Shown piece after piece: positions 44,729 to 64,000 of a DNA stretch of 64,000 nt (positions within the stretch are counted from its first letter, which is position 1; every line of letters starts with the position of its first letter). This DNA comes from a virus (taxonomy: Duplodnaviria; Heunggongvirae; Uroviricota; Caudoviricetes), in the IMG/VR virus record IMGVR_UViG_2541047680_000004, one strand, 5' to 3'. Position numbers and translations under genes: made by a program. The notes beneath the pieces were generated by a model, which did no database searches, had not been told where the DNA came from, and saw only the letters and a list, made by a program, of their open reading frames with translations.

Positions 44729-44845
44729 ATAACCTATTGATATTTAATGATGTGATTGCTGGTATGGGAGGGGAGTAGTGGCGATCAACGGGTTCTTATA
44801 GAAAAGAATCAAATTGTGACCGCCATTATCAATAAGTTGCAACCG

Positions 44846-45451: not shown

Positions 45452-45527
45452 TTAACAAACATAACCTAAACACACAGCAGATATAGCATTACAAACTCAT
45501 TGTGAAAACCATTATCATAGGAAACGA

Positions 45528-45713
45528 TTAGATGAGATGGTCTAATTCATCATCTATCATGGCTTTGACGCTGGAGTCATTCACTCCATATTTATTTATG
45601 AGCTGTTTCAGCTCTGGCGAAAACTGAAGGTAGATATCGTGAGCGTTTTTCACTGTAGGTTCAACGCCACGCATTTCAAGCGCCTTTAGTAGATATGAGT
45701 CTTCTTTAAGCAT
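45528..45713 (-). CDS. hypothetical small protein
   Basis: 61-aa ORF. Confidence 0.3.
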   Translation of the reverse strand: MLKEDSYLLKALEMRGVEPTVKNAHDIYLQFSPELKQLINKYGVNDSSVKAMIDDELDHLI

Positions 45714-45749
45714 AAATTCTCCGTTATCTAGTATGAAGCGATTGCCGGA

Positions 45750-46049
45750 TTACCATTGCCAGCACTCAAGCCCTTCAACGACCGGTGCGCCACAATCAAA
45801 ATGTACAGAGTCAAAGCCTACATCAAGTACTTTCTGAATGTTCGCAATCGCGCCCTCGGATATACCATATCGACGCAACTCATCTATCCAGTCATCGTCC
45901 TGTAACCCGGCGTGGACAATGCAACCGTACTCAATTTGTGAAACCCAATCCAGCTCATTGCTTGCGATCATGAATCGGCGAGCATCTTCCTCTGATGTAT
46001 GAGATGAGCTGATCAATGCCACCTGGTAGGCTTGGGTAATGTTCAACAT
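45750..46049 (-). CDS. hypothetical protein
   Basis: ATG start at 46049 with RBS GGAGTGG; family-1 operator pair immediately upstream. Confidence 0.4.
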   Translation of the reverse strand: MLNITQAYQVALISSSHTSEEDARRFMIASNELDWVSQIEYGCIVHAGLQDDDWIDELRRYGISEGAIANIQKVLDVGFDSVHFDCGAPVVEGLECWQW

Positions 46050-48244: not shown

Positions 48245-48401
48245 AGTAGGCATTACTTCTTTGTAGTGAAAAGGGGCTTGATAGTAACAAAATGGCCTTA
48301 TGTCTGCCATGTGATAACAGCATTTCTCATAAATGATTAAATGTCGCAGCTGGAGTACACTACAAGGCGACAATTGCGCAAATTAAAATAAAGGAGACGG
48401 G

Positions 48402-49502
48402 ATGAGCGAGTCCAAATCGCCGGATGCCCTGAGAGCAATGGTAGCCGGTACGCTGGCTAATTTTCAGCACCCAACCCTGAAACACAACCTGACTACGCTT
48501 AAAGCGTTACACCATGTTGCGTTGATGGATGACACACTGCATGTCGAACTAATCATGCCTTTCGTGTGGAATAAGCCTTTTGAAGACCTGAAAGAGCAAT
48601 GTAGTGGTGATCTGCTCCGTATCACTGGCGCAAAGGCTATTGACTGGAAGCTGTCGTACAACATTGCCACGCTTAAGCGCGTCAAAAACCAACCAGGCAT
48701 TAATGGTGTTAAGAATATTATCGCCGTAAGCTCAGGCAAGGGCGGTGTAGGCAAATCGTCCACAGCAGTAAACTTGGCACTGGCTTTGGCTGCTGAAGGT
48801 GCGAAAGTTGGTATTTTGGATGCCGATATCTATGGTCCATCAATTCCAACCATGCTGGGCGCGGAAAACCAACGTCCAACCTCACCGGACGGTACTCACA
48901 TGGCACCTATCATGTCTCATGGCCTGGCAACCAACTCTATTGGTTATCTGGTCACCGACGACAATGCAATGGTGTGGCGTGGACCGATGGCCAGCAAGGC
49001 GCTGATGCAGATGTTGCAGGAAACACTGTGGCCTGATCTGGACTATCTCGTTCTCGATATGCCGCCGGGCACTGGTGATATTCAATTGACGCTGGCGCAG
49101 AACATTCCTGTAACTGGTGCGGTTGTGGTAACTACGCCGCAAGACATCGCGCTGATCGATGCGAAGAAAGGCATTGTGATGTTCGAAAAAGTCGAAGTGC
49201 CGGTACTAGGTATCGTCGAAAACATGAGTGTGCATATTTGCAGTAACTGCGGTCATCACGAGCCAATTTTTGGCACCGGTGGCGCACAGAAACTGGCCGA
49301 GAAATACAACACGCAGTTGTTAGGCCAAATGCCACTTCATATCTCTCTTCGTGAAGATCTGGATAACGGAACACCAACCGTTATTAGTCGTCCAGATAGC
49401 GAATTTACGGCTATTTATCGTGACCTCGCAGATCGCGTTGCTGCCCAAATGTATTGGCAAGGTGAAGTAATACCTGGCGAAATCGCATTCCGCGCAGTGT
49501 GA
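48402..49502 (+). CDS. apbC: Fe-S cluster carrier ATPase Mrp/ApbC
   Basis: P-loop SSGKGGVGKS, CxxC motif (CSNCGH); divergent from metG as in E. coli. Confidence 0.95.
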   Translation: MSESKSPDALRAMVAGTLANFQHPTLKHNLTTLKALHHVALMDDTLHVELIMPFVWNKPFEDLKEQCSGDLLRITGAKAIDWKLSYNIATLKRVKNQPGINGVKNIIAVSSGKGGVGKSSTAVNLALALAAEGAKVGILDADIYGPSIPTMLGAENQRPTSPDGTHMAPIMSHGLATNSIGYLVTDDNAMVWRGPMASKALMQMLQETLWPDLDYLVLDMPPGTGDIQLTLAQNIPVTGAVVVTTPQDIALIDAKKGIVMFEKVEVPVLGIVENMSVHICSNCGHHEPIFGTGGAQKLAEKYNTQLLGQMPLHISLREDLDNGTPTVISRPDSEFTAIYRDLADRVAAQMYWQGEVIPGEIAFRAV

Positions 49503-49503
49503 T

Positions 49504-49530
49504 AAAAAGGTGGTGCAATGCACCACCTAA
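49504..49530 (-). terminator. terminator hairpin between convergent mrp and UmuD'-like gene
   Basis: inverted repeat GGTGGTG / CACCACC with U-run on minus-strand RNA. Confidence 0.5.
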
Positions 49531-49539
49531 ACAGTTCTC

Positions 49540-49929
49540 CTACATCACAGGACAATCATCAAACTCGCCACTTCTTGCGTCGTTGATAATGTGAGTGATC
49601 ACACCAAACACGGCATTGCTGCCCGTGCATCCATCATCATCCTTTGGCAATGCTTCCTTCTTACCAGTTCTTAAATCCTCCAGATGCTGACGTGGATACT
49701 TCCGGTATCTTTTTACGCGATATTCCCCATCCAGAGCACATACAAGAAGAGATCCATCAACAGGAGTCAGTGAGGAATCGACCACCAGCAATGCACCCTG
49801 CAATATTCCCTCACGATGATGACTATCAGCCGCCCTCATGAAGTAGGTCGCTGAAGGATGTCTAATTATCTGCTGATCAAGAGAAATACGGCTCTCAGCA
49901 TAATCCGCCGCAGGAGAAGGGAAGCCCAT
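49540..49929 (-). CDS. UmuD'-like S24 peptidase-fold protein (HumD-like)
   Basis: begins MGFPSPAADY, aligning with UmuD from the RecA cleavage site onward; Ser (ADSH) and Lys (RVKR) positions conserved; in-frame TAA 15 nt upstream of ATG; RBS AAGAGG. Confidence 0.85.
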   Translation of the reverse strand: MGFPSPAADYAESRISLDQQIIRHPSATYFMRAADSHHREGILQGALLVVDSSLTPVDGSLLVCALDGEYRVKRYRKYPRQHLEDLRTGKKEALPKDDDGCTGSNAVFGVITHIINDARSGEFDDCPVM

Positions 49930-49945
49930 AATACTCGCCTCTTAA

Positions 49946-49965
49946 TGCTGTATATGCATACAGTA
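49946..49965. promoter_or_regulatory. LexA (SOS) box
   Basis: TGCTGTATATGCATACAGTA = CTGT-N8-ACAG, 16 nt upstream of the UmuD'-like start. Confidence 0.8.
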
Positions 49966-50260
49966 TATGTTGAAGCTATATATTTTTGAACTCTATCTCT
50001 TAAAAAAGATGTTAATAAGATGCTAACTATTGAAAGGCATAAATATATACAATTCCAACAAACGTTATTTTTAACAAATTTTTACTTCCCATTGACTTTC
50101 CCAGACTCCTTGTCTGAACTAATGTCCGCGGAAACCACTTTTTCCTTTACGAGTTATCCACAAAGTTATGCACTTGCACATAGTCTCTATAAATCCTATC
50201 TTAATTCGCAAGACACTGATGTTGCGGTATTGTGGGTACATTTGGTTAAAAACGGACATT

Positions 50261-50293
50261 AAAAAAGCCCAGTTGACTAGGCTGGGCTTTTTA
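50261..50293. terminator. bidirectional rho-independent terminator
   Basis: AAAAAAGCCCAG..CTGGGCTTTTT. Confidence 0.65.
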
Positions 50294-50299
50294 AAAGGA

Positions 50300-50716
50300 A
50301 ACAGAGTTTGCGCCTCTGTTCCTGAGCCATAAGTATCTGGCGACTGAGCTAAGATTAACCGAATGTACTGGATTCATCAAGAAACGTTGAGCCGTCATGC
50401 TAGGTAATAATGACCATTTACCAAACATCGTTGTTCTCAAAGAAGATTTAAGTCCAGGTTTTTGGTGACTCTAAAACCTTACCTTAACTCGAAATCGTGC
50501 CGTAAGTATCTGGCGACTACAGATATTGCAACTGCAAAGGCAAGCTCAAAGGTATTTGCAGCTAGGTGCGATAAAACTAAGTGAGGCCTATAGTGCTTAA
50601 CTTACTTTTCAAAATCGTGCCGCCTATGTTCGCAATCATCGAAGCGATCATTGAGTACGTCAACCAGCGCCCATAATGCTAGTTGTTACCGGCCCCATCC
50701 AAATGGGGCCATTTTA
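50300..50716 (+). ncRNA. candidate structured noncoding region / small RNA locus
   Basis: ORF-free; direct repeats TAAGTATCTGGCGACT (50330, 50503) and AAATCGTGCCG (50492, 50612); hairpins; plus-strand terminator GGCCCCAT..ATGGGGCC then ATTTTATTG at 50690-50716. Confidence 0.25.
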
Positions 50717-50725
50717 TTGTATTGA

Positions 50726-51358
50726 CTACATACTTTCTGATCTAATTGAGTTGTTCACTGCTCTGGCAATTTTCTCCCGCAATTGCTGCGTTCCGTGGTA
50801 CTGAACCGCAATATCCCGCAACTCATTCACCAGTTCTCTAATCTGGTGATCTTTAAGCTCATTATTTGGGTGATGGGCAACAACTCTGGTTAATTCACCC
50901 TTGTCTTTTGCTCTTACGTATGCAGCTCTTGTGCATTCGACCCATGTATTACCGCCTACATTAACTTCGTAGATTAGGCTGGACTTATCTGTCAATTCGG
51001 AACAAATACGGGCCGTGGTCTGGCAACTAGAGCATTCGCAGTTATCGCGGAAACCGTGATCTACCGGTCGAGAAAGAGGTTTAACTTTTTCATCCAACTT
51101 CATCACAGCATCGTGATAAGCGTTCCAGCCGTCATCTTTACCAAGTTGATAAATCTCTGAAGGCTCCATGTAGTCTATATCGCAACCTTCTTCATCTGAT
51201 CTATCTGGTCGTTTCCCTGGTAATCGTTCATAAAAACGATTTCTGTCTCGACGTTCGGCTCTCAGTGCTAACGCAAGAAGTTGCTCAAGCGAGGTATTTG
51301 CACCAGCAATAATTTCATTGAGAATATCTTCTGTGAGATCTTTCGCTACCGTGCTCAT
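50726..51358 (-). CDS. hypothetical protein
   Basis: 210-aa ORF with Cys cluster CECSSCQ. Confidence 0.4.
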   Translation of the reverse strand: MSTVAKDLTEDILNEIIAGANTSLEQLLALALRAERRDRNRFYERLPGKRPDRSDEEGCDIDYMEPSEIYQLGKDDGWNAYHDAVMKLDEKVKPLSRPVDHGFRDNCECSSCQTTARICSELTDKSSLIYEVNVGGNTWVECTRAAYVRAKDKGELTRVVAHHPNNELKDHQIRELVNELRDIAVQYHGTQQLREKIARAVNNSIRSESM

Positions 51359-51942
51359 TTATCTCTCTCAGTATGTTGCGATGGCGTAAATTTGACGACA
51401 TCAAATATTTTGGATGGCATCAACTTTATCCGCGAGCTTAGTTCGGCTCTTCTCTGTAATGCGGTTAATAATGTTTTCGTTCTGACGCCTTCGTGTATCC
51501 TCATCCCTGGCACAAGGACTACATCGCAGGGGAGATGCTCAGGTGACAAATCATTTTGGGCATCACCAATAAGTTGTGTAATCTCTCTTTCAAGCCGACC
51601 GCCTAACTCCGTTTTAGTGCAATGTTCTGACCAATCGCCAGCCTCAAGAAGCGCGAGAATGTTTAAAATATCGTCCACAAGAGCAGTAGTGTCGCCGATG
51701 ACAGGAAAGGGATCGGCATAAAGCGCGACAATATCCCCAATCGTTTTTTGTTCCGCATCCTCAATATCTAAATATGCCGGAGTCGAAACAATTGCCGGAT
51801 CGGCCAAATCATCTTTCATTACAAACGCAGATGGCTTTTGTTCAGACAAGGCCAGTAACACATTCGCCATACGATGTGCGATGTGCTTTTTTCCGTAATC
51901 CTTTGTTGCCTGTGTTAGTTCTTCTTTTGTCATTTCAATCAT
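51355..51942 (-). CDS. hypothetical protein
   Basis: 195-aa ORF, ATGA overlap with neighbour. Confidence 0.4.
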   Translation of the reverse strand: MIEMTKEELTQATKDYGKKHIAHRMANVLLALSEQKPSAFVMKDDLADPAIVSTPAYLDIEDAEQKTIGDIVALYADPFPVIGDTTALVDDILNILALLEAGDWSEHCTKTELGGRLEREITQLIGDAQNDLSPEHLPCDVVLVPGMRIHEGVRTKTLLTALQRRAELSSRIKLMPSKIFDVVKFTPSQHTERDK

Positions 51943-52475
51943 CGTAAGGCATCCTCCACACTTAGCAGTCCGTTCCGCAAAAGATAATCCATCGCCCTAT
52001 CCGGTAATTTGCAATCAGGTTTTGCTTTTTTCAGTTGGCTGACCAATTGTTTAACCAGCATTGTTAATTCGATAACCTGGTAGCGCGGCAATGGTGAATT
52101 ATCGGCTTTACCCTGGATGACTGAACGTCCTTTCTCCTCCTTCGACGGTTCTGGCTGCGCCATGTAAAGCGGGGCAACATGTGCGACAGAACCGAGTGAC
52201 TCATGTATCCGAACCCATGTATCTTTCTCTGCACAGTCACGGTAAATAATAGAGACTGATTCCTGATCGTTTTTTGTGAGTGTTACCAGCCACGCCACTG
52301 GCTCTGCCTCCAGTGAGGTCAGTGCAATTCGAGCCAGTTTTAGATCTCGTTCAACCATCTCATGAACAACTTTGCAGTCCGCTCCTTCTTTACTAACACG
52401 TCCTTTCAAGTCTTCCAGATAACTAACGCTTTCGCGTGCATGGGAGATTAACTGTTCTTTGGTAAAGGTGGTCAT
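51939..52475 (-). CDS. hypothetical protein
   Basis: 178-aa ORF in coupled gene string. Confidence 0.4.
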   Translation of the reverse strand: MTTFTKEQLISHARESVSYLEDLKGRVSKEGADCKVVHEMVERDLKLARIALTSLEAEPVAWLVTLTKNDQESVSIIYRDCAEKDTWVRIHESLGSVAHVAPLYMAQPEPSKEEKGRSVIQGKADNSPLPRYQVIELTMLVKQLVSQLKKAKPDCKLPDRAMDYLLRNGLLSVEDALR

Positions 52476-52663
52476 TAGGTAGCTCTCTCAACAACAAGCA
52501 ATTCGTCGTAGTCATAATCAGTTTCGGAACCATCCGTACCGAACAGAGTCACTTTTTCACCGTTCATCCAGAAAGATTTAACCGCACATCGTTTGCCTTT
52601 AGATGTTATGACCACATCACCTGGGGTTACATCTTCAGCGCGAACTTCTACTGTTCTCATCAT
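52475..52663 (-). CDS. hypothetical small protein
   Basis: short ORF from MMRTVEV; start uncertain. Confidence 0.3.
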   Translation of the reverse strand: MMRTVEVRAEDVTPGDVVITSKGKRCAVKSFWMNGEKVTLFGTDGSETDYDYDELLVVERAT

Positions 52664-53201
52664 GCTGACCCTCTTTGGTGAAAACGCCTGATGCAATACT
52701 GTTTATGATGCTGTCAGTACAGGGAGTAGAAAGCTGGGCATCTCCAGCTATTTTCATGACTTCGACATCCGCATATCGAATACCGAGGTGTATCAGACCT
52801 GCTATACCTGACTTAAGTCGAACATTTTCCATAAACAGATCCTTTTCCCGCTGTTTAACGGTCTCCAGCTCAACACGCAGTTTCTCAAGCGTTAGGGCCA
52901 TCTCTACGTTCTCCTGCTCAAGACGTCGGATGTGTTGCTGTCTTTTATCCAGTTCGTCCAGCAGTGCAATCACATCGGGATCACTATCATCAACTACTGT
53001 TACGCGTGATTTTTCATAATGTTCGTCTGCAAAAGTACGCCCTATCTTAAAATATCCGTCATCACCCTCACCGGAACAGGCATAAACAACATGTGCTCCA
53101 GATATGCGCTGTATTGACATTTCCTCGCCACAAACAGAGCATTTAGGCGCTGGTTTTGGTGAATAACGTTCACGTAACGTCAGGTAGTAAATCTCATTCA
53201 C
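52635..53201 (-). CDS. zinc-ribbon plus coiled-coil protein
   Basis: CSVCGEE..YACSGEG Cys pairs; central coiled-coil-like segment. Confidence 0.4.
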   Translation of the reverse strand: MNEIYYLTLRERYSPKPAPKCSVCGEEMSIQRISGAHVVYACSGEGDDGYFKIGRTFADEHYEKSRVTVVDDSDPDVIALLDELDKRQQHIRRLEQENVEMALTLEKLRVELETVKQREKDLFMENVRLKSGIAGLIHLGIRYADVEVMKIAGDAQLSTPCTDSIINSIASGVFTKEGQHDENSRSSR

Positions 53202-53653
53202 TGTTTAGCTCCTGTACGAAGCTCAGCGGCAAAAGCTACTGCGTGATCATGATGTTCAAGTGTGTATGCGCACTCAGCAAACATCTCCACGCCCTGCGCA
53301 CGTACTTCAGCCAGAAAAGCATCGGTTGCTGGAGTCTCCGTTAATTCGCTAACCCAATTATCTCCGTGTTCCTCGGCACACATCGCATCGAATGCTCGCT
53401 CAGATTCTTTCAGGGCTGCATTCTCCGCCGCTAATGCGTCTCTCTGCGCCCGCAACTTCTCAATTTCGGCAGCCATGTAGTAACCAACCATAGCGAAAGT
53501 GGCGAAAGGGTAGTCCGAATCATCAGGAGATACGGAGGCCATTAGCAGACCATCGTGCATGTTCTGGCTTCCATCAGTGATGGATACCGCATAAGAATCG
53601 CTGGTTTCCCGTTTATACAATACGACGACCGGGTTCTTGATTTTCTCTCTCAT
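53198..53653 (-). CDS. hypothetical protein
   Basis: 151-aa ORF. Confidence 0.4.
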   Translation of the reverse strand: MREKIKNPVVVLYKRETSDSYAVSITDGSQNMHDGLLMASVSPDDSDYPFATFAMVGYYMAAEIEKLRAQRDALAAENAALKESERAFDAMCAEEHGDNWVSELTETPATDAFLAEVRAQGVEMFAECAYTLEHHDHAVAFAAELRTGAKQ

Positions 53654-54207
53654 TACGATGCCTCTAACTTGTCTAACTCTTTCAGCCCTTCACGTACCGC
53701 GTTCACAATGCGTTCCAGATACTGGTATTTCGGGTTTGGTATCGTTGGCCAGTCGGCATACCACGGATCATCACCAAATAGATTCAGCAGTTTGTTACCG
53801 ATGCCGAGACAACAGCAGCTTTCTTTGACATCATCTGCGTTTTCCGCCTCGACCCACATTTCGCGAGCCTGTACAGCATCGATTTCTCTCTCTCTTCGTA
53901 ACTTTATGATTTCTGACTTCACGAAAAGCAGATTTGCATCGTTGTCATCGTCGACCGTGCTTAGCAGTTGAGGGTCGAAATTGTCGATTAGATAGTCGTT
54001 GCTAACTCGCTTGATGAACGTCTGCACATCATCACCGCCCATAGCAAACCAAGCCGCAGTCCACGCTTTTCCGTAGCAGGTGATGGTGATTCTTCCCTTA
54101 CCAGGTTCGTAGTTTTCAATCATCACTCGAACCGGATCGAGGCGTTCCAGATCCGTCAGCACAAAGGAAAGAACATCTATTTTTTCGACCTTCATGCAGC
54201 CTCCCAC
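53653..54207 (-). CDS. hypothetical protein
   Basis: 184-aa ORF. Confidence 0.4.
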   Translation of the reverse strand: MGGCMKVEKIDVLSFVLTDLERLDPVRVMIENYEPGKGRITITCYGKAWTAAWFAMGGDDVQTFIKRVSNDYLIDNFDPQLLSTVDDDNDANLLFVKSEIIKLRREREIDAVQAREMWVEAENADDVKESCCCLGIGNKLLNLFGDDPWYADWPTIPNPKYQYLERIVNAVREGLKELDKLEAS

Positions 54208-54833
54208 GCGCTCCAGATCAGCGATTTGTGTTTTTCATAACGTTTGATGTGTACCGGTTTCAGAAGCGCAATACCTTCTGTCACTTTCGCCATTGCGCTT
54301 AATAGCAACGGGTGTTCTATACCTACCCTCTCCATGTACTCGACAACATCAGCATTGGCACCAATCTCTTTGCCGTTAAAGAGTACGTCCAGCATCAGTT
54401 CTTTCTCTGCAAGGTAGATAGCTGAAAACTCAGGATCGCGACTCACGATAGAAGAGGTATTGTCCAGCAGGTCAGCCAGCTTGATCATGCGCGTCTGCAT
54501 GTTGAGATTTTGCTCCAGCTCCCGGACATTGATGATGAAACGCTGTATTCGATTGCCGTCTTCTGGCCTTGCAATGTTGGTCAGAGCCAGAACCATTTCA
54601 GCTACGCGCTCACCGAAGTGATCACGAACCATCTCTATGGTTACATTTGTGTCTTCGACCACATCATGCAGAAGCGCCGCGATCTGCATCTCCACGGTTC
54701 CGTCATGCAATGCAACGATCTCTCGGACAGCAACCGGATGATTTATATAATCTTCACCTGTATATTTTCTTTTCTGACCAACGCCACCATGAGCGCCAGC
54801 GGCGAACATATGTGCTTCGGAAATACTAGACAT
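54192..54833 (-). CDS. SpoT/RelA-like HD-domain hydrolase (small alarmone hydrolase candidate)
   Basis: YINHPVAV and AALLHDVVEDT match the (p)ppGpp-hydrolase HD signature; 213 aa, no synthetase domain. Confidence 0.75.
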   Translation of the reverse strand: MSSISEAHMFAAGAHGGVGQKRKYTGEDYINHPVAVREIVALHDGTVEMQIAALLHDVVEDTNVTIEMVRDHFGERVAEMVLALTNIARPEDGNRIQRFIINVRELEQNLNMQTRMIKLADLLDNTSSIVSRDPEFSAIYLAEKELMLDVLFNGKEIGANADVVEYMERVGIEHPLLLSAMAKVTEGIALLKPVHIKRYEKHKSLIWSAWEAA

Positions 54834-54842
54834 TCTTAACTC

Positions 54843-54905
54843 CGTTGTTTTCTAGTTGTGGTTATTTTCACAAATAAGAAAAGGCAGAAAACAATTTATT
54901 TAAGG
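54843..54905. promoter_or_regulatory. composite family-1 operator pair upstream of HD-hydrolase gene
   Basis: TTGTTTTCT half-site plus AAGGCAGAAAACAATTTATTT. Confidence 0.5.
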
Positions 54906-54952
54906 CCATAAGTTATGGCCTTTATTTATTCATGCAGAAGGATTTGTAGCGC

Positions 54953-55333
54953 CTAATTGCCGGATAAAATGGGTTGAGGTGCTTGCCAGTAAGCTCCACC
55001 GTCCCATGTGAACCCCATGCGAATAAGAGTGTTTATTGCGGCTTTGGTAGACTCCGATTCGACACTGGCTTTTCGAAACTCTTGAACCTCTTTCGCCAAC
55101 TTGTATGTAATTGTGCAGGGGACGATTGCAGCCCAGCCTTTCTCATGACTGTTAATGACCATCTGGATGTGACCATCCAGAATAGGTTGATCAGGCATGT
55201 TATTGAAAACGTCTGCCTGTTTTTGAATATGAAGAAAAAGCCTTGCCAGCTCCATTTGCTCACTACGAGACAAGGGATTATCAAGAGGGTTTTTTGCAAA
55301 AGCGGCTATACGCTGTGCGTCAATGCCAAACAT
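54953..55333 (-). CDS. hypothetical protein
   Basis: 126-aa ORF. Confidence 0.35.
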   Translation of the reverse strand: MFGIDAQRIAAFAKNPLDNPLSRSEQMELARLFLHIQKQADVFNNMPDQPILDGHIQMVINSHEKGWAAIVPCTITYKLAKEVQEFRKASVESESTKAAINTLIRMGFTWDGGAYWQAPQPILSGN

Positions 55334-56037
55334 CAGCGCACCTCACCATCTTTATGGCTGGAGTTAACTTCCGCCATTAAATGTCTGACGTAATCGACAA
55401 GAGAGCCACCTGGTGGAATCTGGCATTCCTCAACTAACTGGAAGTAGATATCCGCAGCATTACGTGTATTGCTACCCGCGCATATTCTTTCTTCCCGAAG
55501 TGCATGAAGCTCGTTGATCAAACGGTCACACTCTCCGTTACGCTGATCCACAACAGCCTCAAGCTCTGCGACGCGTTCACCTGGCGTCTTACCTTCTTTG
55601 CGTTGGATGGTAACGACGAAATCGCCAATTGCAGGGACGTTGTAATCCAGCTCAAGGTAGTTTTTGGCACCGCTGCGGACGAACTCACCCGCGAACATGG
55701 TGGCGAACATCGCAGAGGCCACTTCGCCGTTGAAAAGTGACTCCAGATCTAACGGAGTCCCGGCAGCAAGAGCCTCTTTTGCTGTATCCATTGCATCCAT
55801 GAACCGATCAAACTCATTAGCGCGCTTTTCCAGGTCTTTCCATTGCTCGCTCCAACGTTTGGCAACGAAGTCTATGAATGTTTTCGCGGATTCATCAAAA
55901 TCCCCCTCAAACTTAACGATGCCTTTATCAATAATGATCTGGCCTACCGCATCCTCTGCATAACCTTTCAATGTAAACTTGAAAGAAAAATCAGAACGGC
56001 CTGTGACGTTAAAATGCTCTAACTGGAGGTTGCTCAT
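55333..56037 (-). CDS. hypothetical protein
   Basis: 234-aa ORF. Confidence 0.4.
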   Translation of the reverse strand: MSNLQLEHFNVTGRSDFSFKFTLKGYAEDAVGQIIIDKGIVKFEGDFDESAKTFIDFVAKRWSEQWKDLEKRANEFDRFMDAMDTAKEALAAGTPLDLESLFNGEVASAMFATMFAGEFVRSGAKNYLELDYNVPAIGDFVVTIQRKEGKTPGERVAELEAVVDQRNGECDRLINELHALREERICAGSNTRNAADIYFQLVEECQIPPGGSLVDYVRHLMAEVNSSHKDGEVR

Positions 56038-56082
56038 GTGTTTTTCTCTTCTCGTTTAGTTACTACATTCTTACACAAATTA

Positions 56083-56100
56083 AGTAAGTATTTACCTATC
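56083..56100. promoter_or_regulatory. family-2 dyad-like motif
   Basis: AGTAAGTATTTACCTATC. Confidence 0.3.
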
Positions 56101-57784
56101 ATTTAACGCGTTTGAAAACGTATACGCTGACTGTGATCCCGGTATCTTCAAACTCGTTGGTAAACGACTTCCCTCTGGCATAAACGTAATTATCCATCGT
56201 CATCCAGTCCAGTATTGGCGCAGTGCCCGGCAATACTGCTACAAGACGCCCGCCGACTTTCAGATGCCCCAGCGCAGCCATCGTGTGCTCTCTATGACGA
56301 CCAAGCGAGTACGGCGGGTTCATAACGATTTTGTCGAACTGATAACCTGCGTTGTTCTCAGACCACTTTATGAAGTCGCAGCAAATCGTGTTCGTATACC
56401 CTTTTCCACGCAGGATATCAGCGAAGAGAGGTGCGATTTCTATGCAGGTAACATCTTCCAGATCGGCGTTAATATAGGCCAGAAGATCCCCACGTCCGGC
56501 TTGAGGCTCCAGCAGCTTCTCACCAGGCTTCAATTCAGTGGCTCTGGCAACGTACTCAGCAATCAAGCGTGGGGTAGGGTAGAACTGGTGTGATTTTGTA
56601 TCCGGTATTAATCCGGTAGCCACAATCGTATTTAGCGTATGGCCGATCTCATACGGGAACTGCCAGTGCTTTTTCTCCTGCACGCCGCCAATGAAGCTCA
56701 GTGTGCGCTCAAGCTCTTCCACCTGCGACTTCTGGAGAGCTGAATCAGAGAAGTACCATACGCCTTTGTCTTTGCTCAATCGCCCGTCACGAAGCGCAGT
56801 GCGAACCGGCACGGAGATCGTCTTCTGGATTAAACCGAACTGCTTTGGTGCCCGTGTTTTTGGCGCAGTTCGGCATGGCGCGGGGATTGCAGCAGGCATA
56901 CTGTAAGCCAGCACCTCATTCAACTTCCAGGCCACGTCAGGATGTATTTCAAAGTGAACGTTGCCGTTCTTGAACATCTTCACGCGCATCAGATTTCCAT
57001 CGACGTTCATCCAGTCACCGGTCTGGCAGTCGTTTGCCCTATACGCAGCTGATAGCACCTCAGCAGTGCGGTTGATGGTAATAAATTCTTTGTGCGCGAA
57101 GAAATGAAGCAAGACACGCAGATCGTCGATGTAGTCCTCTTTGCGATAGTTCACGCTAACGCTGTCCCGCCAGAAATCAGAAATGCAGTCAGCGATTATC
57201 AGACGCTCGCTGAAACCGTTTGTCTTATTTGTCTTGTGCGCAGGACTCAGCGCCTTAAACAAGCCATACACGCGCTCAGAGAGATATTTGTGCCTGTCAT
57301 TCAGCAAATTAAGCATCGTGGGTATGACCGTTTCTGCTTTGAACTCCGGTACACCAACGAACTCTTTAACCTTCATCTGGTAGCCTGTTCTGTCAGTTTT
57401 GATGACTTCCTGTTTGCCCTCTATAAACTGCTCGCGCCACTCATCTCGACGGGAAGCTGGCATGATCAGCAAAACGTTAGTCATGTCCGTGACCTTCCTC
57501 CAGTACTCGGCCCAAATATTCTGTTTCACCCATTCCAGATCGACTTTATCCAACCAACCTCGATTTAAACGCGAGCGATCTTCATCTGGTCGATGGTTTA
57601 GTCTCAGCAGGCGATTAATCATGTTGTGGCGTTCGTCGCCATAAACGAAGTCGTGTACCTGATACATGAAGGCGATCTCTTTCTCGCACTCGGCCACGAT
57701 TTCGTGGATGACATTCATTTCCTGACGATAGTCGATAGCCGTGTTTGAGCTGGCATCGTCGATGATAGAAAGGGCTGTATTCAT
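56099..57784 (-). CDS. N6-adenine DNA methyltransferase with large N-terminal domain of unknown function
   Basis: C-terminal motifs FYPTP, LEPQAGRGDLL (SAM-binding-like) and NPPY; about 370-aa N-terminal region without recognised motif. Confidence 0.75.
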   Translation of the reverse strand: MNTALSIIDDASSNTAIDYRQEMNVIHEIVAECEKEIAFMYQVHDFVYGDERHNMINRLLRLNHRPDEDRSRLNRGWLDKVDLEWVKQNIWAEYWRKVTDMTNVLLIMPASRRDEWREQFIEGKQEVIKTDRTGYQMKVKEFVGVPEFKAETVIPTMLNLLNDRHKYLSERVYGLFKALSPAHKTNKTNGFSERLIIADCISDFWRDSVSVNYRKEDYIDDLRVLLHFFAHKEFITINRTAEVLSAAYRANDCQTGDWMNVDGNLMRVKMFKNGNVHFEIHPDVAWKLNEVLAYSMPAAIPAPCRTAPKTRAPKQFGLIQKTISVPVRTALRDGRLSKDKGVWYFSDSALQKSQVEELERTLSFIGGVQEKKHWQFPYEIGHTLNTIVATGLIPDTKSHQFYPTPRLIAEYVARATELKPGEKLLEPQAGRGDLLAYINADLEDVTCIEIAPLFADILRGKGYTNTICCDFIKWSENNAGYQFDKIVMNPPYSLGRHREHTMAALGHLKVGGRLVAVLPGTAPILDWMTMDNYVYARGKSFTNEFEDTGITVSVYVFKRVK

Positions 57785-57796
57785 AATTACACCATT

Positions 57797-57830
57797 AAAT
57801 AATTTGTTTTCTGATTGGTGTAATTATCGC
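57797..57830. promoter_or_regulatory. family-1 operator/promoter element
   Basis: AAATAATTTGTTTTCTGATTGGTGTAATTATCGC. Confidence 0.5.
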
Positions 57831-57925
57831 AAACTTGAAAAGGCATAAAAGCTGCATTCATAGGCGTTACAGCAGATTTAAGGCGTAAAAATGGGGGCTT
57901 TCGCCCCCTGTCGACTGGTGCAGTA

Positions 57926-58492
57926 TTAGAGTGCGTATTGCGTTTTGTGCGGCTGCTTATTCAAGTCATGGCGATGCGTGAGCTCCCGCATCATGTCTTC
58001 AAGGCGACTCTTTGTGTCGTCGAGCTGGTCGGCCATTGCACCTAAAAGCTGGCGAACGGCCATCGGATCGTCGCTGTTTAGTGATGGCATTTTATAACCT
58101 GCTTTAGAAGATATAAGGTTAATTGCAGACATCAACATCGTTAGAGAGGATTTAAGCCCGGCAATTTCACGATCTTTGCTGGCAATAATCGTCTCACTTT
58201 TATTACCGTCATGAGATCCTTGAGTCTCGCTCACCATATCCAAAGTCGCTTGCAACTTATCAGCTCTCTCTTTTTCAGCAAGATAATGAACACCGAAATG
58301 ATGTGCTAAAGCTACAATCTGAGTTGGCTCTTCAAAGGTGGACTCAAAATTAAGTGCTGTAACCACTCTCTCAAATATGGAAACGTCTTCTATTCCTCGA
58401 AGAATGGCTAACATTTTGACCAGTTCATTAGCATCCATTTCTTCGAATAAGGCGTTTTGTTCATCAGCTATCGCTTTGCATTTCTTGCACAT
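57926..58492 (-). CDS. hypothetical protein
   Basis: 188-aa ORF. Confidence 0.4.
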   Translation of the reverse strand: MCKKCKAIADEQNALFEEMDANELVKMLAILRGIEDVSIFERVVTALNFESTFEEPTQIVALAHHFGVHYLAEKERADKLQATLDMVSETQGSHDGNKSETIIASKDREIAGLKSSLTMLMSAINLISSKAGYKMPSLNSDDPMAVRQLLGAMADQLDDTKSRLEDMMRELTHRHDLNKQPHKTQYAL

Positions 58493-58510
58493 GTGTTTTT
58501 CCTAATGCTT

Positions 58511-58549
58511 AAACAAGTTGTTTTCTTATTGGCTTTATTGTGATGTGGC
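58511..58549. promoter_or_regulatory. family-1 operator/promoter element
   Basis: AAACAAGTTGTTTTCTTATTGGCTTTATTGTGATGTGGC. Confidence 0.5.
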
Positions 58550-58789
58550 ATAAAAGGGGAGCAAGCTAAACGTAAAGGTGCAAACTCTCTATTTCGGTCA
58601 ACGAAACACAAGGGCCATTTGGCCCTTGTCATTAGCACTTTGCTTTACGAACTAACGGATAAGCGAAGTAGATCGCCAAACCAATGAGGACGCCATCAGA
58701 AATGACAGACATCATCTTTCCCGTAAAATCCACCAACACCGCCATCACCAGAAGAGCAATGACGATCACAAGCCGGAATCTCTCAAGCA

Positions 58790-59215
58790 TTAGAGATAAG
58801 CATCCAGTGACAACTGAAGCGCCTGGGCGATCTTTTTCAGTGCCTGCTCTTCTTGTTCACCAATGCCGTCCTGATCGGCAATATCAAGGCACAGACACAG
58901 AACATCGACCGCCTCTGGAGTACCCGCAATATCAGACAGCTCACGAATAGCCTGTGCATTAGCAGAACGAGGGGACGCTTCGTAACGAGCACGGATATTG
59001 GCGCTCATTTGGGCAATTTCACCAGCAAACGGAGAAAACGCAGGCAGAGCTGCAATTGTCTTCTCAAGAATGGCAATTTCTTTTGCGTCACATGTGCCGT
59101 CGGCATAGGAGATCATGTACGCGCCCCACACGGTGGCCTCAACCGCATCACGGTTCTCCATTTTTTTGACTTCGATAACAGCTTTACGAGTTTTCTTTTT
59201 GAAGAAACCTAACAT
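58790..59215 (-). CDS. hypothetical protein (possible TerB-like fold)
   Basis: 141 aa; loose resemblance to TerB-type pattern (YADG..E..L); weak. Confidence 0.35.
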   Translation of the reverse strand: MLGFFKKKTRKAVIEVKKMENRDAVEATVWGAYMISYADGTCDAKEIAILEKTIAALPAFSPFAGEIAQMSANIRARYEASPRSANAQAIRELSDIAGTPEAVDVLCLCLDIADQDGIGEQEEQALKKIAQALQLSLDAYL

Positions 59216-59238
59216 GTGTTTTCCTTTTATTATTTGTC

Positions 59239-59270
59239 AAAACAAGTTGTTTTCTAATTACATAAATTGC
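59239..59270. promoter_or_regulatory. family-1 operator/promoter element
   Basis: AAAACAAGTTGTTTTCTAATTACATAAATTGC. Confidence 0.5.
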
Positions 59271-59308
59271 TTACGCAGAGATGGTCAATGCATATGCACT
59301 AACAGCCG

Positions 59309-59497
59309 TCAGAAATAACCAAGTACCGAACCAACTGGAAAAACAAAAATCCCAACTACACGAGCCAAGGTCATGCCAGCCTGAAACTGGAGATCGCCAG
59401 AGCAAACAAGTTTTATAATGTTCGATACCCAACCGGCGGCCATGAGGGCAAGAATTGCCAGCCAAATTTTTCCAAAGTGATTTGAAAACCAGTTCAT
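59309..59497 (-). CDS. small membrane protein
   Basis: 62 aa with two hydrophobic helices. Confidence 0.35.
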   Translation of the reverse strand: MNWFSNHFGKIWLAILALMAAGWVSNIIKLVCSGDLQFQAGMTLARVVGIFVFPVGSVLGYF

Positions 59498-59506
59498 ACA
59501 ACCGCC

Positions 59507-60001
59507 TTAGTCACAGCATGATCCTGAGTAACTGGATGAACTTGAGGTATCGCATCCACCGCCATCCCATCCAGAGTGACAGGACGCTCCACTGGAGTGG
59601 TGGTAATTGTCGTCGACGAAGGTGTGGTGATGGATGAATCCGGCATCAAAAGGCTCTGACCGGCTGGAACGGCTACCGTCGCCAGTGAAACTATAATGAG
59701 AACGTAGGCCATTGGTTTCAGCCTCTTTCTTTGAAAATTTTCCATTCGAACTGTCCTTGTTGTTTTTCTCCTTCACTAAAGGCCGTGCATTTTTCGCTTC
59801 GCGTGAAGAACCAGAGGCAACAATCGCCCCCACGTTCGCAACAACTGACGCTTGATTATCTAAACGTTCATTCAGCAACCGAACGGTAGTCTCTAGTTCA
59901 TCAAGACGTGACATAACACGACCGCTAAATAATTCGGCCAAAATTTGACGTAAAGAACGAGGACGTTTAGTTACAGAAGTGAAATAGGTTTGACGTGCCA
60001 T
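59507..60001 (-). CDS. hypothetical protein (N-terminal coiled coil, low-complexity C-terminus)
   Basis: first about 75 aa protein-like; remainder Ser/Gly/His-rich and overlapped by another ORF with a signal-peptide-like start (59494..59745). Confidence 0.3.
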   Translation of the reverse strand: MARQTYFTSVTKRPRSLRQILAELFSGRVMSRLDELETTVRLLNERLDNQASVVANVGAIVASGSSREAKNARPLVKEKNNKDSSNGKFSKKEAETNGLRSHYSFTGDGSRSSRSEPFDAGFIHHHTFVDDNYHHSSGASCHSGWDGGGCDTSSSSSYSGSCCD

Positions 60002-60130
60002 GTGGACTCCATCCAGTGTCAGAAAGAGTTGCGGCTGGCGATTGCCAGCCGCCTTTCTCGTTCCATCCTGGAACTGTGTCTTACCGACACATTGTCATCC
60101 TGACGCCGATAAGATACATGATTTAAAATG

Positions 60131-60153
60131 ATAGGTAAACACTTACTTACTAT
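60131..60153. promoter_or_regulatory. family-2 dyad-like motif
   Basis: ATAGGTAAACACTTACTTACTAT. Confidence 0.3.
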
Positions 60154-60740
60154 TTGTTATAAACAAAACCAATATCTTTCTTGTGAGGCATATCTGCTGC
60201 TGAAAAAGCTGCGATCTTCGCGAGTCGATCACATATTTCATTTTCACGATGCCCGGCGTGACCTTTAACCCACTTCCAGCGAACATTATGTCGACTTGCG
60301 GCCTCATCCAGACGCTTCCACAGATCAACATTCTTTACCGGTTTTTTGTCAGAAGTCATCCATCCATTGCGTTTCCACCATTTCATCCACTGTGTCATGC
60401 CGTTTTTCAGATACTGGCTATCAGAGTGCAAAATAACGTTGCATGGATATTTCAAACGCTCCAGCCCGATAAGTGCCCCCATCATCTCCATGCGGTTATT
60501 GGTGGTGCTATGAAAACCATCTGAGAACTCGCGTTCCTCACCACGATACTGGAGAACGATACCGTAACCGCCCGGGCCACCCGGATTTTTAAGGCAAGAG
60601 CCATCACTAAAGATTTTCACGGTTTTAAGCTGGGGATTGAACTCTACGACAGGCGTTGTGGGATTGGTGCGGGGAGAATTTTTGTTTTTGTCTTTTTTGC
60701 GAGTTTTTGCTTGCGATCGGGCTGGTGTCTTCGTCGTCAT
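60150..60740 (-). CDS. ribonuclease H (RNase HI family) with basic N-terminal extension
   Basis: SDGSC, NNRME, HSDSQY, VKGHAGH, NE..D motifs; start set at MTTKT with RBS AGGAG. Confidence 0.8.
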
Positions 60741-60839
60741 ATAAACTCCTGAATCAAGCGCCGCGCCGATTTTTCCTCGCGCGTGCGCACACGCGTGCGT
60801 GTTAATAATTATTAAAATAAACAAATTACTTCCCAGAAC

Positions 60840-61205
60840 AGGTTTTTATAAACCTGAACTGAACGAACGAAGTGAGTGACGTTCACCTCGAACGAAGTGA
60901 GAGGTTGTCTTTTCAGGTAATACTCTCCCAGGGAGGTGAGTATAAAATTCCTCACCAACCTGGTCGTTTCATAACCTGAAAAGCTATGGTCTAAGTCTAC
61001 TGCCAGCTTAGACTTGGGAAGTTATGGATGACAGCACCCCAGAACCGAGATCTTCCCACACTTTATGAAGGGGAGTACTGGATTCAACCTCTCGAAACAC
61101 CCCAGACTCGACAATCATAAAGTGACCCTTGTCTCTGCTCACTTTGGTTCCCCCTTCCCCGACACCTATACGGCACCGGTTCTACGCTGGTAGTGAGCTT
61201 TTTTA
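60840..61205 (+). ncRNA. candidate structured noncoding RNA (antisense to flanking genes)
   Basis: ORF-free 480-bp gap; nested inverted repeats CTTTTCAGGT/ACCTGAAAAG and GGTGAG/CTCACC; duplicated GAACGAAGTGAG; plus-strand hairpin GCTCACT..AGTGAGC followed by TTTTTT at 61137-61205. Confidence 0.3.
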
Positions 61206-61321
61206 AACCTGACGCCAGTGACGCTTACCCCCACCCATCAGGTCGAGCCTCCAGTCTACGACTGGAAACTATCAGATCTTAGCACTTACAATTCACTTTA
61301 TGAATAGTTTGTACTTATCTA

Positions 61322-61576
61322 TCATTGTGATTGATTATTTTCTCGACCATGTAGTTGAACATTCAAGGCAAACACCTCATTGATCAACTCACCTAAAAGC
61401 TGTTCAACAAGTTCGCGATGCTCGCCAAGATGCAAGCACTTAATTGCCCACTCGTACAAGTTGAAAGCCTGCTCACGATCTTTCATCATTTCACGAGCCT
61501 GGGCCAGAAAATCGCTCTCTACGAGCGCAACGACATTAGTCGGGTATGACATGTTGGTTTCCTTAAAGTGGTTCAT
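61322..61576 (-). CDS. hypothetical protein
   Basis: 84-aa ORF. Confidence 0.35.
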   Translation of the reverse strand: MNHFKETNMSYPTNVVALVESDFLAQAREMMKDREQAFNLYEWAIKCLHLGEHRELVEQLLGELINEVFALNVQLHGRENNQSQ

Positions 61577-61659
61577 AAAATCGATTTTAAAGCGTCTGGG
61601 AAGGGGGTCTAGTGGATTCTGTAGTGATGTTCAGGTCTGGGAGTCTCTGATACAAAACA

Positions 61660-61716
61660 GCCTGCTTCCGTATATTAATAATTAATATGTAGTTATTTAT
61701 ATATACAGAAGCAGGC
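61660..61716. repeat. large AT-centred palindromic element, copy 2
   Basis: arms GCCTGCTTCCGTATAT / ATATACAGAAGCAGGC; GGTCTGG 19 nt upstream. Confidence 0.6.
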
Positions 61717-61738
61717 TAATTACAGACGCCAGAGCAAA

Positions 61739-62332
61739 CTAAGCAGCCTTCTTTGATGGTCTTTTTTTCCTGATCACATTCGCAGGATCATACCCTCCCA
61801 GACTTTTCATGACGTCCAAAGGGATCTTGCTTATAGAGTGCCCAGCGTCCTGACAAAACCCTCGAAAAACAACGAGCATACTGCCACCGGGGTTGATGTT
61901 TACTTCTACCTGACCCAAATTGACGTCAGGCTCGACAAACGCAACGCGGCCACCAGACAGAATAATCGTCTCATTCGCATACTCTGTTGCACGCTCATAC
62001 CACTTTGTATCGAGGGATTGAGGAATTAGCATCACTGTTGTAACTCCGCGAGCCTGCTCACGTATAGCCGCATCAATCCAGGGGGAGATTTTGGAGTAGG
62101 GTGGATTGAGGAAGGCAATTGTACCTGGCTGCCCCCATTCAGATTTCAAAGCATCGCGCTCAACGCCTATGAAAATAGGCAGCTTTGCATTGTCCTTGTT
62201 GCAGGCAACGTCAACATCAAATGTCACTCCAAGATAACGTTGAATGGCAGAAAACAGCCAATCAGGTGTTCTCCAGAGGTCACGAAGAGAGTTGTCGCGC
62301 TTTCGCTGTTTGATTTTTTCGGCTGCAATCAT
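61739..62332 (-). CDS. phage-type DNA N6-adenine methyltransferase (Dam-like)
   Basis: motifs RTPDWLF, FDVDVAC and FLNPPYS; 197 aa; no adjacent restriction partner. Confidence 0.8.
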   Translation of the reverse strand: MIAAEKIKQRKRDNSLRDLWRTPDWLFSAIQRYLGVTFDVDVACNKDNAKLPIFIGVERDALKSEWGQPGTIAFLNPPYSKISPWIDAAIREQARGVTTVMLIPQSLDTKWYERATEYANETIILSGGRVAFVEPDVNLGQVEVNINPGGSMLVVFRGFCQDAGHSISKIPLDVMKSLGGYDPANVIRKKRPSKKAA

Positions 62333-62342
62333 CTTCTTCCTC

Positions 62343-62364
62343 GATAGGTAAGTGATTACCTATT
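62343..62364. promoter_or_regulatory. family-2 perfect dyad ATAGGTAA-GTGA-TTACCTAT
   Basis: 8-4-8 palindrome about 10 bp upstream of the methyltransferase start. Confidence 0.35.
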
Positions 62365-62514
62365 TTTGCATTTGATTTTATGTATGGCAATCAAATAAAA
62401 CGCGCCAGAAATGCGAACAAGAAGCTCTCTGGCGCGTTTTTGTGGTGCTGGGTATGGGTTAGCTTACCCAGCACTATAAAGCTCTCTATGGGCTTTATTT
62501 TCAGTAGGGGAACG

Positions 62515-63324
62515 TCATCCAATAGTGTACTCCGCGACAAACTTCTTAACGATCGGTGATTCTTCGTTCAATGTTAGATTTCCACCGTCTCTAACAGCAA
62601 TTCCTGTAGCTGGAAATACAGCCATCATTTGCCCAGCCTGAGTTGACGCAGTGTTAAGCGGATACGGTTTTTCTGGATTGCTCATTAAAGCAATCTTAAT
62701 ACTATTACTTGTAGCCTTCTTTTCTGTGAGAAGGTGTCTCATGGAAATTACCGTGTAAACACTAATATCTGGACCTCCGCTAAACCAATTAAGAAGGTTT
62801 AATATCTTATCCTTTGCTTTGACAGGCGCGTTTTCGTAAGCGTCTAAGAAAATATCTTTTTCTAAGCCTGCTTTATTGAAAAACAAATCATCTTTATCAC
62901 TTAAAGTAAAACGAGGACCTCTTGCAGTACGAGCTTTTTTATTTGTATTGCTATCATTTGACTGTTGAACTTTTAATTCATCATTAACCTCAACACACTC
63001 TTCAACCTCAATAAACCCCAATTGTTCTGGCTCGTTTTCGGCAGATTCAACACTTTCAGCCTTAATTACGTTTATAGGCTCATGAGCTAACTCCAACTCA
63101 TTTAAAGCGGAGCTGAAATCACCTGCTTTTTCTTCATTGAACAGTTCTTCGGCAACATCATCAGAACTCATGGCTACGCCAGCATCGAGGCCGAGAAGCA
63201 GATCGTCAATATCATCAGTATTTTCAACCTGTGCAGCTTTTTTTACTGGTTCATCAAGTGATTGCAACATGGCTGTCAGCTCATCCAGATCATCATTTGT
63301 CATTACATTTTCAACCGAACTCAT
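62515..63324 (-). CDS. hypothetical protein with highly acidic N-terminal half
   Basis: 269 aa; Asp/Glu-rich first 120 aa. Confidence 0.4.
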   Translation of the reverse strand: MSSVENVMTNDDLDELTAMLQSLDEPVKKAAQVENTDDIDDLLLGLDAGVAMSSDDVAEELFNEEKAGDFSSALNELELAHEPINVIKAESVESAENEPEQLGFIEVEECVEVNDELKVQQSNDSNTNKKARTARGPRFTLSDKDDLFFNKAGLEKDIFLDAYENAPVKAKDKILNLLNWFSGGPDISVYTVISMRHLLTEKKATSNSIKIALMSNPEKPYPLNTASTQAGQMMAVFPATGIAVRDGGNLTLNEESPIVKKFVAEYTIG

Positions 63325-63447
63325 GTAAGTCTCCTTCTGTTTAGTTGCATTTGCGTTTCGATGGCTACATTTTGACTAAACCTATCAGGCGGAAAAGTAT
63401 TAAATACAGGCAGGAAATGATTGAAAGGCGACTGTTCTTTAAAAGAA

Positions 63448-63486
63448 AGCCTGCTTCAAACTCTCTTTAAAGCAGGCTTTTGTTTT
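63448..63486. terminator. terminator hairpin related to the palindromic elements
   Basis: AGCCTGCTT..AAGCAGGCT stem followed by TTTTGTTTT. Confidence 0.5.
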
Positions 63487-63784
63487 ACACAATTTCAGAG
63501 GGTAATTTAAAAAATCCGTATTTATTACGTGCCTTAAAGAAGCATTGCATCATTAAGTTTGTGTCATATAAGGCACTATGTGCTTTGGCATGATCGTATA
63601 TAAAGCCAAGAGAGAAGGCCAATTCTTCAAGGCGAGGACGTTTACCGTCTTCTGTGGCCCACAATCCCGATAACATAGTATCTATAACGGGAACGTCTGG
63701 CAGTCTTACTCCATACCCTGAAAACTCGTGTCGAATAAATGGTATATCAAACGCTTCGCCGTTATGAGCAATCCACGCACTACA
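63485..63784 (-). pseudogene. DnaQ-like (DEDDh) 3'-5' exonuclease gene, 5'-truncated by IS10
   Basis: C-terminal reading frame contains HNGEAFDIPF (Exo II-like) and HSALYD (Exo III-like); reading frame runs into the IS10 end at 63785 with no Exo I region. Confidence 0.65.
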
Positions 63785-64000
63785 CTGATGAATCCCCTAA
63801 TGATTTTGGTAAAAATCATTAAGTTAAGGTAGATACACATCTTGTCATATGATCAAATGGTTTCGCGAAAAATCAATAATCAGACAACAAGATGTGCGAA
63901 CTCGATATTTTACACGACTCTCTTTACCAATTCTGCCCCGAATTACACTTAAAACGACTCAACAGCTTAACGTTGGCTTGCCACGCCTTACTTGACTGTA
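63785..64000 (+). mobile_element. IS10 (IS4 family) end, partial, continues beyond window
   Basis: sequence from CTGATGAATCCCCTAATGATTTTGGTAAAAATCATTAAG matches the IS10 terminal sequence as I recall it. Confidence 0.85.
63892..64000 (+). CDS. IS10 transposase, N-terminal fragment (partial at window edge)
   Basis: translation MCELDILHDSLYQFCPELHLKRLNSLTLACHALLD. Confidence 0.85.
   Translation, partial: MCELDILHDSLYQFCPELHLKRLNSLTLACHALLDC

Follow-up and report, generated by a model that had tools for sequence, protein, structure and literature searches.

The interrupted exonuclease gene and its surroundings

The window analysed here, a stretch of 64,000 nucleotides, is the last 64 kb of the draft scaffold KE698814.1 (109,855 nt) from the clinical Escherichia coli strain HVH 3 (4-7276001), assembly GCA_000456045.1; the last 16,075 nt of this scaffold are identical to window positions 47926-64000, and position 64000 is the scaffold end. 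The scaffold was identified by an exact match to a rare allele of the 188-aa gene at 57926-58492. Two features occupy the end of the window. At 63485-63784, on the minus strand, there is the 3′ fragment of a gene for a DEDDh (DnaQ/RNase T-type) 3′-5′ exonuclease, which comprises codons 87-185 and the stop codon and has neither a start codon nor the Exo I motif. It is directly followed, at 63785-64000 on the plus strand, by the outside end of an IS10-Right-type element (IS nucleotides 1-216), truncated by the end of the source scaffold.

Over its 99 codons and the stop, the open exonuclease frame shows 100% identity to codons 87-185 of the intact 185-aa pECOH89 gene (L001 4986-5285), its translation reading CSAWIAHNGEAFDIPF...HSALYDTNLMMQCFF...SEIV*. 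Within this fragment, Exo II is present as HNGEAFD, with D99 at 63746-63748, and Exo III as HSALYD, with H155 at 63578-63580 and D160 at 63563-63565; Exo I (DIESTG, with D9 and E11) is absent from the 64-kb window. The fragment matches the Pfam profile PF00929 (RNase_T) over profile positions 87-162 of 164 (E 8e-7, 30.2 bits), and the intact 185-aa protein reaches 75.3 bits against a cutoff of 24. In its uninterrupted form, the pECOH89 gene encodes a 185-aa ‘3'-5' exonuclease’ (WP_021520508.1) that carries Exo I, II and III and is assigned to PHROG 192, ‘DNA polymerase exonuclease subunit’. This protein resembles the epsilon subunit of E. coli Pol III (DnaQ, 1j53), as it aligns with epsilon residues 11-176 (E 1.5e-10) and its D9/E11, D99 and H155/D160 match D12/E14, D103 and H162/D167 of epsilon. 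Unlike epsilon, however, it consists of the catalytic domain only, without the C-terminal alpha-binding segment, and it is encoded by a phage-plasmid that, in HVH 3, holds it in a split and presumably inactive form. In HVH 3, the exonuclease frame reaches a TAG five codons inside IS10, and the first in-frame start of the 3′ fragment is Met123 at 63676, from which a 63-aa product without Exo II would be made. Exact matches to this residual reading frame were solely contig-edge fragments and one nonsense allele (L005).

Near-identity, synteny and the combination of phage structural genes with genes for plasmid functions and replication place the whole window in the pECOH89/p09EL50/pHCM2/SSU5 group of roughly 110-kb phage-plasmids, a family of the SSU5/pECOH89 type that has been described previously (PMC3999498, PMC7969092). 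Positions 73-25000 are 99.8% identical to pECOH89 and positions 62500-63784 are 100% identical to it. The segment from 39001 to 63784 aligns collinearly with many family members, and the region between 39 and 58 kb is mosaic, being nearer to other members, such as pRHB19-C05_2, than to pECOH89. A small mosaic boundary is also seen at the beginning of the window, where positions 1-72 have no match in pECOH89 and match other members such as NZ_LR882992.

The exonuclease gene is part of a conserved block of minus-strand genes for nucleotide metabolism and replication, composed of the large and small subunits of RNR, a MazG-like gene, ThyA, DHFR, an AAA ATPase, a 139-aa gene, the exonuclease, a 269-aa gene, Dam and RNase H; the order RNR, ThyA, DHFR, AAA ATPase, exonuclease, 269-aa gene, Dam and RNase H is that of the pECOH89 group. 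The next gene downstream, coding for the 269-aa hypothetical protein (62515-63324, minus strand), is intact, and its product is 100% identical in pECOH89 and 10 other relatives. Homologues of the exonuclease are encoded by contigs about 100-118 kb long that come from Salmonella, Klebsiella, Enterobacter, Cronobacter, Morganella, Xenorhabdus and Acinetobacter, and the gene was intact in all ten of the related contigs sampled (10/10). Unlike the other members of the pECOH89 group, the HVH 3 copy has an exonuclease disrupted by IS10, a state that is unique among the records searched.

Some relatives vary elsewhere in this region. For instance, in GCA_040537825.1 the 269-aa gene and dam are separated by an inserted IS5-like transposase gene (DUF772 and DDE_Tnp_1; L014 10935-11915), about 1 kb away from where IS10 struck in HVH 3. 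In three relatives (L010, L014 and L017, at about 17000-20800), type I restriction-modification genes (HsdR, HsdS) replace the DUF4942 gene found in the window at 56099-57784, which suggests that this position is a swappable slot for defence or accessory genes. Finally, in GCA_943733285.1 the same gene block is found on a contig of 394,858 nt (CALSDF010000002.1, L017), as against the usual ~110 kb; this contig could be a cointegrate, the result of an integration or a misassembly.

The two junctions with IS10

At the first junction, the homology to pECOH89 stops at 63784 and IS10 begins at 63785. The sequence from 63785 to 64000 matches nucleotides 1-216 of the IS10-Right of plasmid R100 in 215 of 216 positions (one mismatch; E about 1e-108). 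It starts CTGATGAATCCCCTAATGATTTTGGTAAAAATCATTAAG and opens with the canonical IS10 terminus CTGATGAATCCCCT, of which this is the single occurrence within the 64-kb window, so that the outside-end terminal sequence CTGATGAATCCCCTAATGATTTT... directly borders the target DNA at 63785. The bases specific to IS10-Right at nucleotides 24, 25, 27, 83 and 107 are all present. The transposase ATG lies at 63892 (IS nucleotide 108), and the first 36 codons of the gene (63892-64000, plus strand) translate to MCELDILHDSLYQFCPELHLKRLNSLTLACHALLDC, as at the N-terminus of the R100 IS10R transposase (402 aa), before the frame runs off the scaffold, at whose end a 36-aa partial gene has been called. A sequence scan for IS10 detected no further IS10 sequence elsewhere in the 64-kb window. 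Neither the IS10 boundary nor the exonuclease frame is a chance match.

The only mismatch with IS10-Right in this end is at window position 63831 (IS10 nucleotide 47), where there is an A instead of a G, as in IS10-Left. This base could be a private mutation, the product of gene conversion between IS10L and IS10R or a sequencing error; in PLSDB, no IS10 copy was 100% identical over the 216 nt.

The sequence stops 216 nt into IS10 because the draft assembly of KE698814.1 stops there. The junction is also present in a second, independent assembly: a Logan contig of run SRR800501, presumably built from reads of the same strain, agrees fully with window positions 56334-63812 and passes the junction by 28 nt.

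The far junction was approached through its expected products. These were predicted for the inside end and for variants of the outside end, giving ten candidates that were looked up as exact sequences among about 15 billion proteins. The sole candidate found consists of exonuclease residues 1-89 followed by LRDPLIISPKRNHV, that is, by read-through into the inside end. It corresponds to EQM97886.1, encoded on one contig of 109,855 nt and deposited as ‘hypothetical protein G683_05079 [Escherichia coli HVH 3 (4-7276001)]’. By contrast, none of the candidates that would result if the far junction were an outside end, as with Tn10 or an inverted IS, was present among the about 15 billion proteins. 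A homology search with the intact exonuclease did not reveal the truncated product, which sits inside a cluster of 551 members.

Inspection of the scaffold start shows the first 89 codons of the exonuclease, including Exo I, followed by the inside end of IS10. The DNA reads GGGGCA-TGTAGTGCG-CTGAGAGATCCCCTCATAATTTCC... down to scaffold position 1, the junction falling between ...GCTTATATGGGGGCA TGTAGTGCG and CTGAGAGATCCCCTCATAATTTCCCCAAAGCGTAACC..., with an IS part 220 nt long. The inside-end terminus, CTGAGAGATCCCCTCATAATTTCC..., opens this part (L021 10268-10487), which is identical in all 220 nt to nucleotides 1110-1329 of IS10-Right and differs from IS10-Left at six positions. The scaffold thus holds IS nucleotides 1-216 and 1110-1329 only, and the middle 893 nt (217-1109) are unassembled. 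By arithmetic on the 402-codon reading frame, the assembled parts cover the first 36 and about the last 68 codons of the transposase, both of them identical to IS10R.

The two junctions share a short target sequence. In the window, the 9 bp directly before the outside end (63776-63784) read CGCACTACA and correspond to codons C87-S88-A89 on the minus strand; the second copy, TGTAGTGCG in the sense of the gene, is the reverse complement of CGCACTACA and abuts the inside end at L021 10259-10267. The duplication is therefore perfect, and a 9-bp target duplication is a hallmark of IS10 (PMC4574204). When IS10 and one 9-bp copy are removed, a gene of 558 nt is obtained that has 0 mismatches with that of pECOH89 and whose uninterrupted target site reads ...CGCACTACATGCCCCC.... 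The 4 kb upstream of the 5′ fragment are 99.95% identical to pECOH89 and keep the gene order of the family. With respect to target preference, the site matches NGCTNAGCN in three of the six specified bases on either strand and, reading by eye, the relaxed consensus NPuCNN-NGPyN (taken from PMC4574204) in three of its four specified positions; sites that deviate from the consensus have been documented for IS10 (PMC4574204), so that this weak match speaks neither for nor against the assignment to IS10.

These results bear out most of the initial annotation, which was made from the letters of the window. It had placed the start of an IS10 terminal sequence at 63785, and this proved exact to the base. 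It had also described a DnaQ-like frame with Exo II and Exo III that runs into IS10, now backed by the profile match and by the positions of the motifs, and had expected the 5′ part of the gene, with Exo I, across the insertion, where codons 1-89 were indeed located. The other IS10 end, the 9-bp duplication and the 5′ fragment, for which it had proposed to look beyond the window, where the record has no further sequence, all came to light at the start of the same scaffold, and the comparison that it had suggested with an uninterrupted homologue led to the exact restoration of the pECOH89 gene.

A probable single insertion and its alternatives

With very high confidence, we consider that one IS10-Right-type element inserted by cut-and-paste into the exonuclease gene of the SSU5/pECOH89-type phage-plasmid of HVH 3. 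A simple insertion is favoured because both junctions lie at exact IS termini and are of the expected end types, and because of the 9-bp duplication and the exact restoration of the gene. In this model, the element would have transposed into codons 87-89, 4-10 codons upstream of Exo II, duplicating the 9 bp CGCACTACA. The gene is split into two pieces: one codes for a product of 103 aa, in which residues 1-89 (with Exo I) are followed by 14 residues encoded by the IS, and the other is a start-less fragment of 99 codons. The draft assembly would then have linearised the circular element within IS10, leaving 216 nt of the outside end at the 3′ end of the scaffold and 220 nt of the inside end at its 5′ start. 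The missing nucleotides 217-1109 would be the rest of a single IS10 of 1,329 bp, and IS10 would be repeated elsewhere in the HVH 3 genome, which would account for the break in the assembly.

The element resembles the IS10-Right of Tn10 (IS4 family; labelled ‘IS4-like element ISVsa5 family’ by PGAP) in the identity of its ends (215/216 and 220/220), in the start of its transposase at IS nucleotide 108 and in its 9-bp duplication. Unlike the IS10-Right of Tn10, it is solo, has an A at IS nucleotide 47 and occupies a target that matches only 3/6 bases of the hotspot consensus.

An alternative that we regard as unlikely is that the two ends belong to two different copies of IS10, either because the phage-plasmid recombined with an IS10 on the chromosome or on another plasmid (and is thus integrated or part of a cointegrate) or because it carries a composite with two direct IS10 copies. 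The scaffold does end within the IS on both sides with 893 nt missing, and the short-read assembly of a cointegrate would look alike; moreover, fusions with larger replicons may occur, given the relative mentioned above that has these genes on a contig of 394,858 nt. However, the 109,419 nt of non-IS DNA in the scaffold fit a complete free element (108-113 kb in this family) broken at the IS only, and a single IS is the simplest source of an outside end, an inside end and a perfect duplication, with no second copy required.

An artefact of assembly or scaffolding, in which the tail of a read from IS10 was misjoined and the exonuclease is intact in the cell, is very improbable. Such an error might be suspected when an IS stretch lies at the extreme end of a draft scaffold, but the junction is present in two assemblies, and chimeric joins do not leave two boundaries that coincide exactly with the IS termini, share a 9-bp duplication and carry gene fragments that complement each other.

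Just as improbable is that the truncation of the exonuclease is one edge of a larger rearrangement made by IS10, such as a deletion, an inversion or the arrangement of metG and mrp, for which the initial annotation had suggested that IS10 could be responsible. IS10 can promote adjacent deletions and inversions, and a 0.9-kb segment near metG (44833-45758) does differ from one relative. Nevertheless, the 5′ fragment and the genes for the 139-aa protein, the AAA ATPase, DHFR, ThyA and RNR are found directly across the IS, in the order of the family and at 99.95% identity, and the target duplication is intact, which excludes an adjacent deletion or inversion at this locus. As for the metG-mrp pair, metG (46211-48373, minus strand) and apbC/mrp (48402-49502, plus strand) are divergent, and the same arrangement is observed in the same place in IS10-free relatives, such as pRHB19-C05_2. 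The segment 46211-49502 is also collinear, in one piece and at about 88-89% identity, with the chromosomal metG-apbC of all 5,426 of 5,426 complete E. coli genomes, and it matches 223 places in plasmids, nearly all of them at 95-99% identity. Together with the lack of other IS10 traces in the window, this removes the suspicion of a rearrangement made by IS10 at metG-mrp. The plasmid metG/apbC is an old captured chromosome-like segment of the lineage, and not a product of IS10. The segment 44833-45758, just downstream of metG, is occupied by an unrelated 1.4 kb in the otherwise collinear E. fergusonii pRHB19-C05_2 (L018 8830-10222), and looks like a variable cassette.

Least probable of all is a complete Tn10, with its tetracycline resistance, inserted in the phage-plasmid, the IS10 end being its edge: an outside end beside target DNA is what either edge of Tn10 would look like (according to the map of R100), but both extremities of Tn10 are outside ends and the far junction here is an inside end, which excludes Tn10, in agreement with the absence from the protein collection of the products predicted for an outside end at that place.

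The single cut-and-paste insertion is recent and private to HVH 3 among the public records searched, as the initial annotation had proposed in speaking of recent IS10 activity. It is considered recent because there are 0/558 mismatches with the pECOH89 gene, the duplication is perfect and the junction is found in no other record searched. In fact, the exact junction was absent from PLSDB, the complete RefSeq E. coli genomes, the INPHARED phages, IMG/VR, the GTDB species representatives and the JGI metagenomes, and the search of about 15 billion proteins located the chimeric exonuclease-IS10 product on one contig only. A 108-kb plasmid with IS10 (H78) was also considered; it proved to be conjugative, with a MOBP relaxase, an IncFIA/IncFII-type replicon and a Tn10 remnant, and is irrelevant to the insertion in HVH 3.

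Probable consequences of the disruption

The active site of DEDDh exonucleases is formed by four acidic residues and a histidine, contributed by Exo I, II and III, which must sit in one chain. All three motifs (DxE, NxxxFD and Hx4D) are found in one polypeptide in the reconstructed gene, but not in the split allele of HVH 3, where Exo I is on the 103-aa product and Exo II and Exo III are on the start-less fragment of 99 codons. Because these residues must lie in one chain, the split allele is expected to be null, that is, a pseudogene. EQM97886.1 (G683_05079, ‘hypothetical protein’) can consequently be re-annotated as an IS10-truncated exonuclease.

Effects on the expression of neighbouring genes may also be considered. 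What is stated here about pIN and pOUT of IS10 reportedly holds according to the literature (including Martinez-Garcia et al. 2003) and does not derive from a promoter scan. IS10 is oriented with its outside end towards the 3′ fragment of the exonuclease, so that transcription from pOUT would enter this dead fragment and run in the direction of the genes further downstream. A terminator-like hairpin with a 15-bp stem and a U-run (-21.3 kcal/mol; z = -2.97 vs shuffles) immediately follows the stop codon of the exonuclease, at 63446-63480 on the minus strand. This hairpin suggests that the transcription unit ends with the exonuclease; any polar or activating influence on the 269-aa gene and dam is therefore probably small, the hairpin probably limiting the effects of pOUT on downstream genes. 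A consensus promoter scan of positions 63200-64000 found no promoter; the hairpin at 63446-63480 was also missed by a simple consensus scan.

Other, independent dead alleles of the exonuclease exist among the relatives: frameshifts are found in P0068 (E. coli BIDMC 62), P0100, P0101 and P0103, and there is a nonsense codon in L005, an ENA metagenome scaffold. Because dead alleles also occur in relatives, the exonuclease appears to be dispensable for carriage of the plasmid. The HVH 3 allele would thus be another case of a plasmid that persists although its epsilon-like exonuclease has been lost, which is consistent with these frameshift and nonsense alleles.

As dnaE and dnaG have been reported from the SSU5/pECOH89-type family (PMC3999498) and the exonuclease belongs to PHROG 192, it could be speculated that the disrupted protein provides proofreading for the DnaE-type polymerase of the phage-plasmid itself and that the IS10 allele is a natural proofreading-null; we give this idea only a small chance of being correct. 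If the exonuclease had such a role, the phage-plasmid would mutate faster whenever it replicates with its own machinery. The flanks of the IS10 allele are still identical to pECOH89, however, and nothing observed points to a proofreading-null mutator; together with the dead alleles in relatives, this suggests that the gene is simply dispensable.

The event is ordinary: IS10 has knocked out an accessory gene for an epsilon-like exonuclease in a known phage-plasmid family, and the insertion is of an already known kind. Its sequence was already in GenBank, although it had not been annotated as an IS10 insertion. Its significance is small: it documents the activity of IS10 in E. coli HVH 3, where the SSU5-type phage-plasmid has been struck, and it explains the end of the scaffold, as a circular replicon is broken at the repeat.

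The phage-type Dam methyltransferase (PF05869) of the block is encoded at 61739-62332, 1.5 kb from IS10, and a GATC is present in the IS10 end at 63851; the expression of the IS10 transposase is Dam-sensitive.
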